Origin: Candidatus Bathyarchaeota archaeon | Lineage (GTDB): Archaea > Thermoproteota > Bathyarchaeia > 40CM-2-53-6 | Reading direction: 5' to 3' | Assembly: GCA_963733055.1 (NCBI GenBank) | Contig: CAVTBR010000001.1 | Location: forward strand, 512,001 to 576,000 | DNA length: 64,000 nt | Part shown: one piece after another, positions 6,960 to 26,349 of the stretch | Position numbering within the stretch: the first letter of the stretch is position 1 | How the letters are laid out: every line of letters starts with the position of its first letter | The notes under the pieces: generated by a model | What the model saw: only the letters and a program-made list of their open reading frames with translations | The model's database searches: none | What the model was told of the DNA's origin: nothing | Made by a program: the position numbers and the translations under genes

Positions 6960-6998
6960 GTGTGTGGGTCTAGTGGTGCGAACGACCAGATTTGAACC
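6960..6998 (+). repeat. 28-bp site fused to tRNA-3'-end-like sequence
   Basis: GTGTGTGGGTC-TAGTGG-TGCGAACGACC-A-GATTTGAACC; reverse complement of 6974-6998 is GGTTCAAATC-TGGTCGTT-CGCACCA. Confidence 0.8.
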
Positions 6999-7082
6999 CG
7001 GTTGAATGTGCCCGGTAAATTGCGGTCAGGATCGGTTGGCAGGATTTCAGAGTGAAGTTGGACCGCGCGTTCGTTCGGCTGT

Positions 7083-7661
7083 TCAGCTGTATGTCTTTAC
7101 GAGGGTTTCGAGTTTCTGGGTGGCTTGTGTGGTTACGGCTTTCTTCAGGTCGTTTCCCTGATGGTCCTGGGTTACTAGTACTGGTCCGAAGTCTTTTACT
7201 TCCCATATCCAAACGAGTTCCGTTGGGCCAAGTTGTTCAAGCAATCGTTTCTTCACTCGTACGATCTTTGAGACGGCTAGGGCGGAGGCTCCGCCGGTGA
7301 ATTCGGAGTAGACGGCGCCGAATGTTTCCAGCCCCTTCTTCCCTTTCTCTCCTAGACCGCCTTTTCCGATGATGATTTTGGTTTGATACTTTTCTAGGAT
7401 GGGTGGGGTTAGGGCGTCCATGCGTGTGCTTGTGGTTGGGCCGCCGGCTAGGATCCTCCATTCGTCGCCGACCTTTTGTGAGATTGGGCCGCAGTGGAAG
7501 ATTGGTAGGCCGATTAGTTCTGGGAGGAATGTTTCGATTAGTTTCTTGTGGGCTTGATCTCTCGCGATTGCAATGTCGCCTGTGACATAGAGTACGTCTC
7601 CTGCACGAATGTCAACGACTCGGCTGTTGTCTTGTGGGACGTGGAGTCTTAATTCTACCAT
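7083..7661 (-). CDS. Class I fumarate hydratase / tartrate dehydratase, beta subunit
   Basis: ARDQAHK, GPTTSTRM, IIGKGG and DFGP motifs. Confidence 0.92.
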   Translation of the reverse strand: MVELRLHVPQDNSRVVDIRAGDVLYVTGDIAIARDQAHKKLIETFLPELIGLPIFHCGPISQKVGDEWRILAGGPTTSTRMDALTPPILEKYQTKIIIGKGGLGEKGKKGLETFGAVYSEFTGGASALAVSKIVRVKKRLLEQLGPTELVWIWEVKDFGPVLVTQDHQGNDLKKAVTTQATQKLETLVKTYS

Positions 7662-7667
7662 TGTATC

Positions 7668-8531
7668 TCACCTTGTGATCTTGAAGTGTCCGTCGGTTAG
7701 TTCGGCTTCTGAAACTCTGTTTGCCCAGCATCCGAAAGAGATCGCTATGGGGAGGCAGGCGGTGTGGGTTCCGGCGGTTTCGATGTGAGCGTCGAGAAGG
7801 GTGGTGTCGCCCCCTAGGCCCATGGTCCCTATTCCAAGCTCGTTAGCGGCTTTCACGATGTTCGTTTCGAACTGTGCTACTTCGGGGTCGGGGTTGCGTG
7901 CGCCAATTTTTCTGAGTAATGCGAGTTTTGAGTTGACCATCGCTTGAACGGCGGATCCGCCGATTCCGATGCCTAGGATGTTGGGCGGGCAGGTTTTTCC
8001 TCCCGCGTCTATCACGGCTTGGAGAATATGCTTCATCATGTCTTGTCTGCTGGCGGTTGGGACCATCATCTTCAGGTTGGTGAAGTTCTCTGAACCAGCT
8101 CCCTTCAAAATCATCTTCATAGCAGTTTTGTCTGTAGACTTGTCTATCAGAACTTCCGGCTCGCCAAGTCCGGTGTTGGTGCCCGTGTTCTTTCTCGTGA
8201 GTGGGTTGACGACGTTCGCCCTCATACCGCCCTTAGAGGTGAGGCCCTGAATCGCCTCGCTCAAAGCGTTCTCCACCTCACCCATATGCTCGATCAAGTC
8301 CCCTGAAATGAAGAGCGTAACTAAACCCGTGTCTTGGCAGAGGGGAAGATGCCGTTCGTAACTCAGGTTAGCGCTGTTCAGGATGGCTTCGAGTTGTTTC
8401 TTGGCCAAGTCTTTTGTCTCATTCACATGAGCCTCCTTGATAGCGCCCATAATGTCCGACGGAAGCCCCATCGTAACCTGCGCGAGCATCTGATTCAATA
8501 TTGGAGGCAAATCATTTGCAGTAAATACCAT
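7668..8531 (-). CDS. Class I fumarate hydratase / tartrate dehydratase, alpha subunit
   Basis: PLCQDTG, KGAGSEN, CPP, GIGIGG, GLGG and CWA motifs. Confidence 0.92.
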   Translation of the reverse strand: MVFTANDLPPILNQMLAQVTMGLPSDIMGAIKEAHVNETKDLAKKQLEAILNSANLSYERHLPLCQDTGLVTLFISGDLIEHMGEVENALSEAIQGLTSKGGMRANVVNPLTRKNTGTNTGLGEPEVLIDKSTDKTAMKMILKGAGSENFTNLKMMVPTASRQDMMKHILQAVIDAGGKTCPPNILGIGIGGSAVQAMVNSKLALLRKIGARNPDPEVAQFETNIVKAANELGIGTMGLGGDTTLLDAHIETAGTHTACLPIAISFGCWANRVSEAELTDGHFKITR

Positions 8532-8681
8532 TCACTATCAACCGTATGCACCATGAGGAAGAGGTAACTTATGGAACGCGCTCTTACTGCCACTAGAATA
8601 TATTCTCATTAACCTGAATCAGCAGAATTAACTACGTTATCGTTTCGTATTGAGACTATCCAAAGCAAAAGAGGAATTCAT

Positions 8682-9086
8682 ATGGACATCAAAAGAAGTG
8701 GCTCACAGCCTTCAACCAAACTACCGGCCGAGTATTTCACCGGCACCGTGCGCATTGACCCCCTATTCGAAGCGCACGATCCGTCACGCGCAACCGGCCT
8801 CAGTGTCACGTTCGAACCCGGAGCCCGGACCGCATGGCACAGCCACCCGCTGGGCCAGACCCTGATCGTGACAGCTGGCTGCGGACTTGTACAGCACTGG
8901 GGAGGCAGGATCGAGGAAATTCGGCCTGGGGACGTGGTTTCGATTCCGCCGGGCGAGAAGCATTGGCACGGCGCCACGCCGACCACGGCCATGACCCACA
9001 TCGCCATTCAAGAACGGCTTGACGGCAAGACCGCCAACTGGATGGAAAAAGTCAGCGACGAACAATACCGTACCTACAAGGGTTGA
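8682..9086 (+). CDS. Cupin domain protein
   Basis: [16 protein letters not shown] and EKHWHGA motifs. Confidence 0.9.
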
Positions 9087-9116
9087 GTAGCTGATAGCAG
9101 CTACCTCCTAGGCGCA

Positions 9117-9755
9117 CTATTCTCGAAACTTACGTTCGGAAACTCGTCTGATAGATGATAGGATGAGTGGGATGAACCAGAAGTAGAATCGTATCGGTTG
9201 GTTCAGGAGTTTAATGTCCCAGAATACTGGCAGTACGGTGATAGCAAATAGGGCTGTGGATATGAAGTAAATGTTCCTAACTCTCGTGTATTTCGCGAGT
9301 GACTCTTTTGGAACTAATCCCTTCTCTTCCGTGGCTAATTGCTGCGTGAATAACGCGAGAATCAGCATCAGCCCGGCCATGTCTAGGGCGTAGAGTATTG
9401 AAGCGTAGTAGAGGAATATTTCATGCGTTAGAAGGTCGAAGGTTATGTTCAGGTAGAATAGGTAAGGTTCGATCGAGACCAGAAAGAGCAATACGAGGTT
9501 GAGGGTAACGGTCCTGCTATCCTCCAATGGAAGAACCGACATTACGTTCGTATAACTCAACCAGACAGAGATCAAAATCAGGAAACCGAACCCGAACTCC
9601 GCAATGTCGATAAGGATTCCGAGTGGCTTCGGGGGAAGCCGGGTTATCAGGGGAATAGTGCTGATCGCAAGAGCAAGCCCGAATATGATGTCGGAGAGCG
9701 ACTCAATTCGGGACCTAGCAATTCGCGGCCCAGCTCGTCCCACTTTTTCGTCCAA
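9117..9755 (-). CDS. TMEM175-family (DUF1211) potassium channel-like protein (copy 1)
   Basis: RIESLSDIIFGLAL matches the RxxxFSD signature; about six hydrophobic segments. Confidence 0.85.
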   Translation of the reverse strand: MDEKVGRAGPRIARSRIESLSDIIFGLALAISTIPLITRLPPKPLGILIDIAEFGFGFLILISVWLSYTNVMSVLPLEDSRTVTLNLVLLFLVSIEPYLFYLNITFDLLTHEIFLYYASILYALDMAGLMLILALFTQQLATEEKGLVPKESLAKYTRVRNIYFISTALFAITVLPVFWDIKLLNQPIRFYFWFIPLILSSIRRVSERKFRE

Positions 9756-25056: not shown

Positions 25057-25707
25057 TCACATGTTTTTTGCTTTGCGACTCAGGAGCAATAAATGCTGAA
25101 GTCCACGACTTACCCAGAGGCTTGCCAGAATCGCATACCAAAGGTAGAATCGCAGTGGAGTGCCTTGGATCATCCAGGACCAAAAGATTGGAAGAGCGGA
25201 TAACCCAAACAACCCAGCGGATATAAACTGCGTATTACGGAGCCACGTATACCCACCAATTAATTCCGGCTCGACCATTTCCTCTTTCCTCGTCAACATC
25301 TGTGCAAACAACCCCAAAATTCCAGTCAGGCCGGTCAAGTCGAGAGCGTAAATTTGAGATGTGAATGCAAGCATAGCGTGGTTTGCGGTGGCTGGGCCGA
25401 AAGTGATGAGGCTAAGCAGGTAGGGCTCGATCGAAACGAAGAAGAGCAGGAGGATATTCAGCCACATCATCATCCCCCTCTCGAAGCGGTCTCGCGGCCA
25501 GGCAGTTACCATACCAGTGTATCTGGACCAAACAGAAATCAAAATGAAGAAACTAAAACCGAATCCGAAAATGTCAGCCACAACGTCACTTGGATTGACG
25601 GCCGGTCGACTCAGCAACGACAACGATCCAATCGAGAGAGCCAGGCCGAATATCAAATCAGAGAGGGATTCGATTCTAGGTTTCGGAATTCGTACACCGA
25701 ACGTCAA
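25057..25707 (-). CDS. TMEM175-family channel-like protein (copy 2)
   Basis: RIESLSDLIFGLAL and FVSIEPYL; paralog of 9117-9755. Confidence 0.85.
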   Translation of the reverse strand: MTFGVRIPKPRIESLSDLIFGLALSIGSLSLLSRPAVNPSDVVADIFGFGFSFFILISVWSRYTGMVTAWPRDRFERGMMMWLNILLLFFVSIEPYLLSLITFGPATANHAMLAFTSQIYALDLTGLTGILGLFAQMLTRKEEMVEPELIGGYTWLRNTQFISAGLFGLSALPIFWSWMIQGTPLRFYLWYAILASLWVSRGLQHLLLLSRKAKNM

Positions 25708-25833
25708 TCACCCACGTAAATGTCCAGCGAGTTAACAGTGAATTTTCGCTAATAAGCTCCTTTTTCCCGACCAAACGTGGACAATCAGTCTGGTCAAACA
25801 GCGAAGGAAGCAAGAGGATGTTCAGTGGAAAGT

Positions 25834-25861
25834 GTGTGTGGATCGAATCGTGCGCACACAC
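25834..25861 (+). repeat. 28-bp 11-6-11 site
   Basis: GTGTGTGGATC-GAATCG-TGCGCACACAC. Confidence 0.9.
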
Positions 25862-25885
25862 TAGCGGATCCTAGGGTCGCTCGTA

Positions 25886-26098
25886 TTATGGAGGCATTAC
25901 TCTTTTGCCGCTTCTCTTATCGAACATAACCGTCCACCCGCCCCTTGGAGAAACGCCTCTGATAACATAAAAATCCGCATCTTCGAACTTTTCAGTAACC
26001 GCTGCCTGATGCCACGCGGTTCTAGCGAATAGCTCCGCACGCCTAGAAGCCTCATTCAAGTCCAAAATCTTCTCAGGTTCCATTCTCCTTTCGGGCAT
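25886..26098 (-). CDS. Small hypothetical protein
   Basis: 70 aa from ATG 26098 (MPERRMEPEK...WTVMFDKRSG); lies between two repeat sites. Confidence 0.5.
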   Translation of the reverse strand: MPERRMEPEKILDLNEASRRAELFARTAWHQAAVTEKFEDADFYVIRGVSPRGGWTVMFDKRSGKRVMPP

Positions 26099-26260
26099 TC
26101 TGCGCCGGTTCCTCTGCCACTCACGCCTAGCCAAGACAGTCCCCAATGGCGATAACTTGGACACGTGAATAGAACTTTTCCCGCGGCGGCTAGAACTAGT
26201 ATAGGGTATTGGCGCAGGTTGTTGTGTCGATGCGGCTGTGTGAGTACCTGAATTTGAATC

Positions 26261-26288
26261 GACGTCGGTCCTAATGGTGCGCACACAC
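26261..26288 (+). repeat. 28-bp 11-6-11 site directly after a T-loop-like box
   Basis: GACGTCGGTCC-TAATGG-TGCGCACACAC; AATTTGAATC at 26251-26260. Confidence 0.8.
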
Positions 26289-26310
26289 ACTTACCACGCT
26301 AAACGACGGC

Positions 26311-26349
26311 GGTTCAAATCATCGTGCTCGCACCAGCTGTAACACTCCC
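26311..26349 (-). repeat. Site fused to tRNA-3'-end-like sequence, reverse orientation
   Basis: + strand GGTTCAAATC-ATCGTGCT-CGCACCA-GCTGTAACACTCCC. Confidence 0.75.

Follow-up and report, generated by a model that had tools for sequence, protein, structure and literature searches.

A tRNA-3'-end mimic within a genus-specific family of short candidate recombination sites in Bathyarchaeia gene arrays

In a 64,000-nucleotide stretch of a Candidatus Bathyarchaeota genome (hereafter the window; positions 512001-576000 of contig C1 of genome G000), two intergenic copies of a short element read like the 3' end of a tRNA, from the T-loop to the terminal CCA, joined directly to one arm of a short site that recurs along the same region. 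The locus raises the question of whether such mimics are remains of tRNA genes, scars of integrated elements, or members of a site family with an activity of its own. The answer favoured here, at roughly even confidence and from comparison of sequences, is that the family may consist of tRNA-derived attachment (att)-type recombination sites bounding single-gene cassettes in an integron-like system. The genome (2.88 Mb in three contigs, 50.5% G+C) was scanned with a position weight matrix (PWM) of the 26-nt site, built from copies read by coordinate. Comparisons were made within a genus set of 23 genomes, 22 of them besides G000, and a further 18 genomes outside the genus were searched with a 21-mer of the site.

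The mimic copies and their site family

Mimic copy 1 (6960..6998, minus strand) consists of the box GGTTCAAATC at 6998-6989, 8 nt at 6988-6981, CGCACCA at 6980-6974 and the arm CTAGACCCACACAC at 6973-6960, its tRNA-like part, 6998-6974, reading GGTTCAAATC-TGGTCGTT-CGCACCA. Mimic copy 2 (26311..26349, plus strand) has the box at 26311-26320, 8 nt, CGCACCA at 26329-26335 and a degenerate arm, GCTGTAACACTCCC, at 26336-26349, and 26311-26335 reads GGTTCAAATC-ATCGTGCT-CGCACCA. In each copy the C after the T-loop (equivalent to C61) is followed by 15 nt ending in CCA, as the preliminary description of this DNA had claimed, and the genome's own tRNAs stand in the same register, e.g. GGTTCAAATC-CCGGCGGC-CGCACCA at C1:343231. 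When at most two mismatches were allowed, the composite pattern had three matches in the window against 0.02 expected, a number reached in none of 100 shuffles; the third match is a real tRNA (58452-58476), and the four exact matches genome-wide are the two window copies, C1:1506444 and one real tRNA. Copy 1 scores 33.3 bits on the PWM and lies between convergent genes, 27 nt past the stop of a KaiC-like gene at 6205-6936, and copy 2 scores 23.2 bits on the minus strand at 26324, 19 nt from the stop of a second KaiC-like gene at 26365-27084 (minus strand).

The mimics span tRNA positions 52-76 only and have no T-stem partner, their extent being set by an information content that falls to approximately zero 5' of the box. 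There were no ARAGORN calls (default or with introns allowed) and no Rfam calls at 6960-6998 or 26311-26349, and Rfam at permissive E-values called no pseudo copy at two related loci, L004 and L009. The lack of a detector call, of conservation 5' of the box and of a T-stem partner rules out an intact tRNA at the copies and counts against a tRNA half, in agreement with the earlier statement that these are not intact tRNAs. A functional tRNA-like RNA, whether one 3' half belonging to a split tRNA or a signal by which transcripts are processed like tRNAs, would draw on the T-loop and CCA, which are the parts of a tRNA read by tRNA enzymes, and would suit an organism with many intron-bearing tRNA genes; the same absences, extending to an acceptor partner, together with random orientation, make this highly improbable. 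Comparison of the flanks of both copies with the genome by BLAST recovered no longer repeat, only the site of ~20-25 nt, and a miniature inverted-repeat transposable element (MITE) longer than ~40-90 nt was rejected, since nothing was repeated in these searches beyond ~25-40 nt.

At a threshold of at least 16 bits, the PWM had 70 matches in the genome (67 without overlaps) and 5 in a shuffled genome. The genus-specific site of ~28 bp is built as GTGTGTG-CGCACCA-YTAGACCCACACAC, and sites of class I are the near-palindrome GTGTGTGGGTCTAATGGTGCGCACACAC. Sites of class II, read in the tRNA sense, extend over ~40 nt as GGTTCAAAT(T/C)-N4-(T)GCYCGCACCA-YTAGACCCACACAC, with tRNA-like letters taking the place of the right arm; G000 has 12 class II pseudo copies, and real tRNAs and tRNA fragments share their register. 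High information content is confined to GGTTCAAAT and to CGCACCA plus arm; the four positions that directly follow the box carry almost none, as does the sequence 5' of it. Nine of 97 sites have ATTTGAA at an offset of +30 relative to the 26-nt site, or 12 if one mismatch is allowed, and every other offset has at most one exact copy. Composite junctions of ~62-90 nt also occur, in which a ACGACGACGG-rich spacer usually lies before the box, after the arm of the preceding site. Degenerate boxes of the form RATTTGAAY are mildly enriched in the window (8 versus 3.09 expected, with 3 of 100 shuffles reaching 8); among seven such boxes proposed previously, those at 10025, 19584, 24379 and 26251 fit this form and those at 6105, 15751 and 27162 do not.

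Across the genus, a scan with GTTCAAAT-N{4,14}-CGCACCAYTAGA had 52 exact matches in 15 of the 23 genomes, with none in any genome for the reversed control, and 50 of the 52 had the 9-nt gap of real tRNAs. By this count and by the shuffling of the window, box and CCA occur at the tRNA spacing more often than chance predicts, contrary to the lack of conserved spacing that would have spoken against the preliminary description. The mimics have a consensus of their own, GGTTCAAATT-N4-TGCYCGCACCA, held in dozens of copies across species, a finding against which the initial view of the mimics as simple attL/attR scars of a resident tRNA does not hold. At 17 of 25 positions the mimic is identical to the tRNA at C1:343231, with differences in the 8 nt between the blocks, and the near-exact copy of a resident tRNA's 3' part, over ~20-40 nt or more, that is expected of an att scar was not found. 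That the mimics are neutral scars, i.e. decaying attL/attR of ordinary integrative elements in tRNA genes ending CGCACCA, is a very unlikely explanation: classical elements with an integrase and tRNA-end duplicates do exist in G000, and copy 1 and its relative at C1:1330395 each have an inverted, degenerate tRNA fragment next to them, but the two blocks and their spacing are kept in more than 50 copies from 15 genomes while the letters between them drift, which argues for selection or active spread and not for decay. The consensus (…AAATT-N4-TGCY…) moreover equals none of the listed tRNA 3' ends of G000, and there are no integrase remnants nearby.

The site 21-mer was found in 20 of the 22 other genus genomes, at up to 48 matches per genome (0-1 in the control), and of 18 genomes searched outside the genus two contained it, once each; viral contigs had no match to it. 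Related loci come in 21 of 23 cases from Candidatus Bathyarchaeia metagenome-assembled genomes (MAGs). Two contigs with the exact 25-nt element, L070 and L071, are assigned to MAGs of a betaproteobacterium and of Promethearchaeati, which may reflect mis-binning.

The placement of the sites relative to genes bears on a regulatory or boundary function. Of the 46 sites of at least 22 bits, crude open reading frame (ORF) calls place 13 between convergent genes, 6 between divergent genes, 21 between genes in tandem and 6 within genes, where intergenic length predicts ~6.6 convergent, 12 divergent and 21.4 tandem, i.e. an approximately twofold enrichment in convergent and twofold depletion in divergent regions. 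In G000 the arm side of the mimics faces a gene start five times and a gene 3' end eight times (both window copies being among the eight), and among 24 copies in other MAGs the split is 13 versus 11. An operator, terminator or insulator, exapted from a tRNA 3' flank, with the box doubling as a TATA-like element, taken along by genes as they move and with rearrangements being incidental, is a possible but rather unlikely account of the family. It would fit the intergenic location of the sites at approximately one per gene junction, the resemblance of gacggTTCAAATTtgg to local tRNA promoters such as agcaggCTTAAATTcgg, the five mimics that lie 49-150 nt upstream of a gene start and point at the gene (mostly KaiC-like), the site of a luciferase-like gene ~20 nt upstream of a TTTATA box, and a cargo made up largely of stress and detoxification genes, as in a regulon. 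However, there is no polarity in the counts given above, the convergent enrichment and divergent depletion run against it, and a consistent orientation and distance upstream of genes, as expected of archaeal promoters, was not found. The local tRNA promoters read CTTTTA or CTTAAAT at about -30, to which TTCAAATT is close but with an extra C. Furthermore, 40 conserved nt in dozens of copies would be unusual for an operator, and this account leaves unexplained both the arm that directly follows two tRNA CCA ends and the homology breaks inside sites, each of which is described below.

Real tRNA genes that carry the arm

Two real tRNA genes, C1:343231-343392 and C3:367674-367769, end in GGCCGCACCA with the arm directly after the CCA (CCAGACACATACAC at C1:343231 and ACACATCCACACAC at C3:367769), and both (…GGCGGCCGCACCA) stand in the same register as the mimics, the CACACAC arm being the same. 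The lineage does possess, in these two genes, tRNAs that end in CGCA-CCA and carry the arm, on which the earlier proposal of a tRNA-derived site had depended. In the tRNA at C3:367674-367769 (locus L008; Rfam 45.2 bits) the T-loop reads TCCGAAT, which is unusual, and 37 nt beyond the gene stands a pseudo copy that shares this loop and is followed by an arm of its own; a rare loop common to a tRNA and an adjacent pseudo copy argues for descent by duplication rather than convergence. Sites occur no more than 60 nt downstream of 4 of the 27 ARAGORN tRNAs, compared with ~0.05 expected from 67 sites in 2.88 Mb. The orthologous tRNA is present in 21 of the 23 genus genomes, of which ~9 have the arm behind it and the remainder lack the arm. 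The arm directly after two real tRNAs and the common TCCGAAT loop support an origin of the copies from a tRNA 3' end, in which the mimic letters would descend from, or imitate, positions 52-76 of a resident tRNA (…GGTTCAAATCCCGGCGGCCGCACCA). A tRNA-derived dispersed repeat, offered as the alternative in the preliminary description, is a tenable reading of the same copies.

The tRNA genes of G000 are of the archaeal kind, with introns common and the CCA encoded; a bacterial-mode scan found 7 and an intron-aware scan 33, of which 27 have introns shorter than 130 nt. Within the window, the real intron-bearing gene occupies 58452-58595 on the minus strand and was detected by ARAGORN with introns allowed, the default scan of the window returning 0 tRNAs. 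Genome G013 has three copies of the orthologous, intron-bearing tRNA, all with the arm (C6:3380-3539, C18:125837-125996 and C29:4456-4616), and in G000 this gene stands between a half site on its upstream side and the arm on its downstream side; it may be that the tRNA gene is itself moved as a cassette. Beside mimic copies lie the motif AATTTACYGGTAC and, in inverted orientation, a fragment of the 3' end of another tRNA (GGGGTCAGAATCCCCTTCCCCGCACCA), the fragment being placed at 1835-1875 of L004 (C1:1330334-1330374), at ~7003-7030 of the window and at ~5250-5300 of L053 in genome G019; G019 has it in intact form, the window in eroded form. Classical integrated elements, distinct from the site family, are found in G000 at C1:1423416/1428505, C3:150470/154827 and C2:409288 as a tyrosine-integrase gene with exact tRNA 3'-end duplicates of at least 24 nt, 4-5 kb apart. 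In the pattern match the scars of these elements show no difference over at least 24 nt, and in the one pair that was aligned the exact stretch is ~37 nt by eye.

Sites as borders of variable gene modules

In several arrays, sites stand at nearly every gene junction, and comparison with relatives places changes of gene content at these sites: modules are gained, lost or moved to another array, and homology breaks off within a site or at its edge. G019 is the closest relative, with common modules at 91-97% identity. Where G019 has AhpC, one hybrid site and TMEM175, the window holds five extra modules (3.7 kb) between two full sites with the centre ATCAAT, at 21199..21226 and 24911..24938 (both plus strand), which form the left and right ends of the block. 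The hybrid site of G019 consists of the AhpC-side flank together with the centre, right arm and flank of the site at 24911. The same joint was present in contigs of three sequencing runs from one study, running from 21200 to 24911, or from 21205 to 24932 with site letters between. In G019, moreover, two extra modules and a full site separate the luciferase-like gene from AhpC; in their place the window has a truncated site, ACGTGTGGAATCAAT (20637..20651, plus strand), with left arm and centre only, which marks a deletion junction. Homology to G019 around the fumarase gene ends at ~7030 of the window, near mimic copy 1. Among the 20 non-adaptor loose ends of metagenome contigs that were listed (84 others being outside the list), 13 lie within 13 nt of a site, compared with ~1.4 expected. 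A further joint, from 23159 to 26966, was set aside as possible cross-matching of paralogues, as it has a 26-nt side and ends within a KaiC-like paralogue.

In a second array (C2:518-535 kb, L001), the modules occur singly on separate contigs in five relatives at 88-96% identity, with several block ends located in sites. The segment C2:524354-525052 matches 3192-3890 of L057 in G013 at 95.6% identity and stands there in a different array, where its neighbour, the orthologue of window 29153-32163, reaches an identity of just 84.4%. Homology of this segment starts between GTGT and GCGYACCA and stops directly after GTGTGTG, such that its ends, joined as a circle, give one full site. These comparisons with G019 and G013, together with the metagenome joints, bear out the proposal that modules join at the sites, and they identify single-gene cassettes that are bounded by sites and vary in content between relatives. 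Alongside, the three segments C2:524354-525052, C2:523295-524272 and C2:522193-522496 are 92-96% identical to their counterparts in G013 (L057-L059), where the flanking conserved DNA is 80-85% identical; the higher identity of the cassettes may be indicative of recent transfer between species.

These observations also bear on a selfish repeat of the repetitive extragenic palindromic (REP) or MITE type, spreading by means of a trans-acting enzyme and forming hot spots of ectopic or microhomology recombination, perhaps favoured by the GT/GC tracts. Such an origin seems unlikely on balance. The full sites are imperfect palindromes, genus-specific and present at 18-48 21-mer matches per site-rich genome, with a preference for gene 3' ends and convergent regions and a random orientation relative to genes; in addition, nothing beyond ~25-40 nt is repeated around the two copies and no cis-encoded recombinase was found around 23 mimic loci, all as would be expected of a repeat of this kind. 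However, G000 was found to have no Y1/REP-associated tyrosine transposase (RAYT), and no insertion or loss of a site alone between collinear flanks was noticed, albeit without a systematic search. The variable unit is a whole site-bounded gene rather than the repeat alone, and the circular permutation of cassette ends to one full site is likewise not what this origin predicts.

Further sites lie in the same part of the window. A half site, GGTGGTGCGCACGCACGC (19112..19132, plus strand), forms the left end of the orf105 module, and one contig skips from 19094 to 19700. Upstream of the luciferase-like gene stands a full site of the 28-bp type (19616..19645, plus strand), preceded by the box AATTTGAAC at 19584-19592 and the spacer TGTTGTCGTTC, with loose ends of metagenome contigs at 19610, 19624 and 19646. 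Within the 3.7-kb block, sites are located between the GYD gene and a KaiC-like gene at 21806-22531 (21670..21697, plus strand), between the convergent KaiC-like and SnoaL genes (22549..22578, plus strand, a full site), and between SnoaL and an arginine-deiminase-like gene (23134..23163, minus strand), the last with a loose end at 23176. The full site at 24400..24429 (minus strand) is followed on that strand by TTTTTTGACGGTTCAAATT, with a box at 24379-24387, and several different contigs diverge around it, at 24390/24394 and at 24428. After the TMEM175-like module stands a full site at 25834..25861 (plus strand), and homology to both G019 and metagenome contigs ends at 25861. The half site at 26261..26290 (plus strand), with a degenerate left arm followed by CTAATGGTGCGCACACACAC, precedes the spacer AAACGACGGC and then mimic copy 2, the whole forming a composite junction at which a metagenome joint, 24398/26306, connects opposite strands. 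Coverage gaps in individual runs, such as 21740-22307 in X2 and X3, were not used for inference.

Genes between sites are small and of ordinary metabolic and stress types; they encode a luciferase-like oxidoreductase, AhpC, GYD, SnoaL, arginine-deiminase-like, TMEM175-like, glyoxalase and cupin proteins, and many KaiC-like proteins. The KaiC-like family comprises 29 tblastn regions in the genome, of which 10 have a site 12-71 nt past the stop and 9 a site 49-289 nt before the start. These KaiC/RecA-fold paralogues of ~240 amino acids include the window genes at 5340-6041, 6205-6936, 21806-22531 and 26365-27084, all four with EFDP.S.WY in place of Walker A, and a C-terminal ENFEVTL-type tail is common to the family. 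The gene at 6205..6936 (plus strand, without Walker A) exemplifies a frequent kind of cargo beside sites, and that at 26365..27084 (minus strand) has its 3' end facing mimic copy 2. A role for the KaiC-like proteins as the recombination machinery was rejected and they are regarded as cargo, because their number does not track that of the sites across genomes: G014 has 34 site matches and no KaiC-like gene (with this query), and G016 has 7 and 14, respectively. An HTH_10 regulator beside the window array similarly found no support as a candidate, as it has three paralogues and is the only one near sites.

Two further features of the window were observed. A direct repeat of 126 nt at 78% identity (15460-15585 and 18945-19070) ends just before half sites at ~15698 and 19112. 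An 824-amino-acid multi-pass membrane protein without a Pfam match is encoded at 16361-18835 (minus strand), in a stretch of DNA that is 97% identical to G019, far above the neighbouring cassettes.

Candidate mechanism, recombinase searches and known systems

A possible explanation for the joints and the tRNA-borne arms is that a cassette circle with one full site undergoes exchange with a further site, or with the 3' end of a tRNA, within or beside their shared CGCACCA/centre. Exchange at a tRNA would leave the tRNA plus arm on one side, and GTGTGTG, CGCACCA and the old flank on the other; the tRNA-side junction could then have been propagated as a free-standing docking site, in which the T-loop box and CGCACCA would be kept because a putative trans-acting recombinase or accessory protein contacts both. 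Both hybrids predicted previously, tRNA plus arm and GTGTGTG plus CGCACCA with a foreign flank, are present in the data. A more specific version, in which this Bathyarchaeia genus has an integron-like cassette system of its own, served by a trans-acting recombinase outside the families recognised here and with cassettes crossing arrays and species, is put forward tentatively and is more doubtful than the assignment of the family as recombination sites.

Several lines of evidence weigh against recombination sites of this kind, the main weakness being that no recombinase was tied to the sites. There was no integrase or transposase, and no PF00589 match, at 5-28 kb of the window, and none of 103 ORFs within 3 kb of 23 class II mimic loci from other MAGs encodes a recombinase. 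G000 has six PF00589 genes, which lie elsewhere, and the four that were compared with tRNA positions adjoin exact tRNA-end duplicates. Despite a completeness of 98% and 32 site matches, G018 has no match to PF00589 or PF16795; the integrase association suggested at the outset is supported neither by this site-rich genome, without a tyrosine-recombinase family match, nor by the surroundings of the mimics, which hold no integrase. PF01797 and PF00239 had no match in G000 either, PF01797 matching 6 of 14 reference genomes in a control search. Some mimics adjoin housekeeping genes, such as those for a ribosomal protein, TATA-binding protein and leucyl-tRNA synthetase. Clean cassette examples are few (~4), and the apparent crossovers vary between the left-arm/centre border, the centre/right-arm border and positions just outside the site, with no fixed point derived. 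Within arrays the sites are of mixed orientation. Homologous or microhomology recombination between repeats of 26-40 nt would give similar junctions, and the sequences compared are all from MAGs or k-mer contigs, in which breaks and mis-joins can arise at repeats.

Other searches for candidate enzymes were similarly negative. PF16795 had no match in G000, and NCBIfam searches of 26 site-adjacent ORFs (23 without a Pfam match, two KaiC-like and the HTH_10 gene) returned KaiC only. Of two ORFs next to the L008 tRNA, one encodes a protein of surface type and the other is doubtful as an ORF.

Among known systems, the family behaves most like the att sites of tRNA-targeting integrases and like integron cassettes, but it has neither an exact tRNA copy nor an associated integrase. 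Gene capture at tRNA genes occurs in Archaea, and integrases that target tRNA genes are classified by a sublocation scheme. Tyrosine integrases are described as using the 3' end of tRNA genes as an att site (PMC4383910, PMC8371274). As in such sites, the T-loop-to-CCA end is here part of the site, hybrid junctions are formed and tRNA-end copies border acquired DNA; in contrast, the units are single genes of 0.4-1.5 kb without their own integrase, the element is a 40-nt consensus with two conserved blocks rather than an exact tRNA copy, and dozens of copies per genome occupy several arrays, mostly away from tRNAs.

The attC sites of integrons are ordered R''-L''...L'-R' with a GTTRRRY core and span 57-141 bp. 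Integrons, consisting of IntI, attI and attC cassettes, have been reported in Archaea (10.1101/2022.02.06.479319). The arrays described here resemble them in having mostly single-gene, promoter-poor modules, each bounded by a short imperfect palindrome, with content that varies between close relatives, with the same cassette in different arrays and with truncated or hybrid sites at secondary junctions. They differ in that no IntI stands beside the arrays, and none is present in some site-rich genomes. The sites have a conserved sequence of 28-40 bp, unlike the structure-defined attC of 57-141 bp, and, by reading, GTTCAAA does not fit GTTRRRY and the arms are GTGTGTG/CACACAC. The orientation of genes relative to sites is random, and there are many small arrays rather than one platform.

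REP sequences and bacterial interspersed mosaic elements (BIMEs) are short conserved imperfect palindromes, intergenic, often past gene 3' ends, paired, lineage-specific and hot spots of rearrangement. REP/BIME families with a RAYT share with the present family the short imperfect intergenic palindromes enriched after gene 3' ends, the frequent pairing in composite units, the lineage specificity and the location at rearrangement hot spots, whereas here there is no Y1/RAYT gene and no GTAG head, one class is a tRNA-end mimic and the gene between sites varies. Dispersed repeats derived from tRNAs, of the short interspersed nuclear element (SINE) or MITE type, are dispersed copies of part of a tRNA gene, and the mimics are alike in this respect; they differ in comprising positions 52-76 only, without an A box, and in being fused to a recombination-site arm in an archaeal host. 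Xer/dif is dissimilar, as it has one site per replicon, served by a XerA recombinase, in contrast to 67 sites of at least 16 bits here, and G018 has sites without a PF00589 match. In Thermococcales, the integrase of pTN3, with att sites in tRNA genes, is reported to reshape chromosomes at short repeats (PMC5495485). This system is similar as an instance of archaeal chromosome change at short repeats linked to tRNA-gene att sites; it differs in producing large inversions through a plasmid integrase, as opposed to small cassette gains and losses with no associated integrase. No description of the element was met in literature on archaeal integrons, KaiC-like paralogues, tRNA integrases and gene capture, which is not proof that none exists.

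If the family does represent recombination sites, cassette exchange would take place in uncultured archaea of soil and peat with a tRNA-derived site instead of attC and with no integron integrase, adding a second and independent path to genome plasticity of the integron kind. Such exchange would further imply a hidden recombinase, which could be found as the binder of a defined 40-nt target, and would exemplify one step in the conversion of a tRNA attB to a family of free-standing sites. On the rival explanations too, the element sharply marks hypervariable gene arrays in the genomes of Bathyarchaeia.

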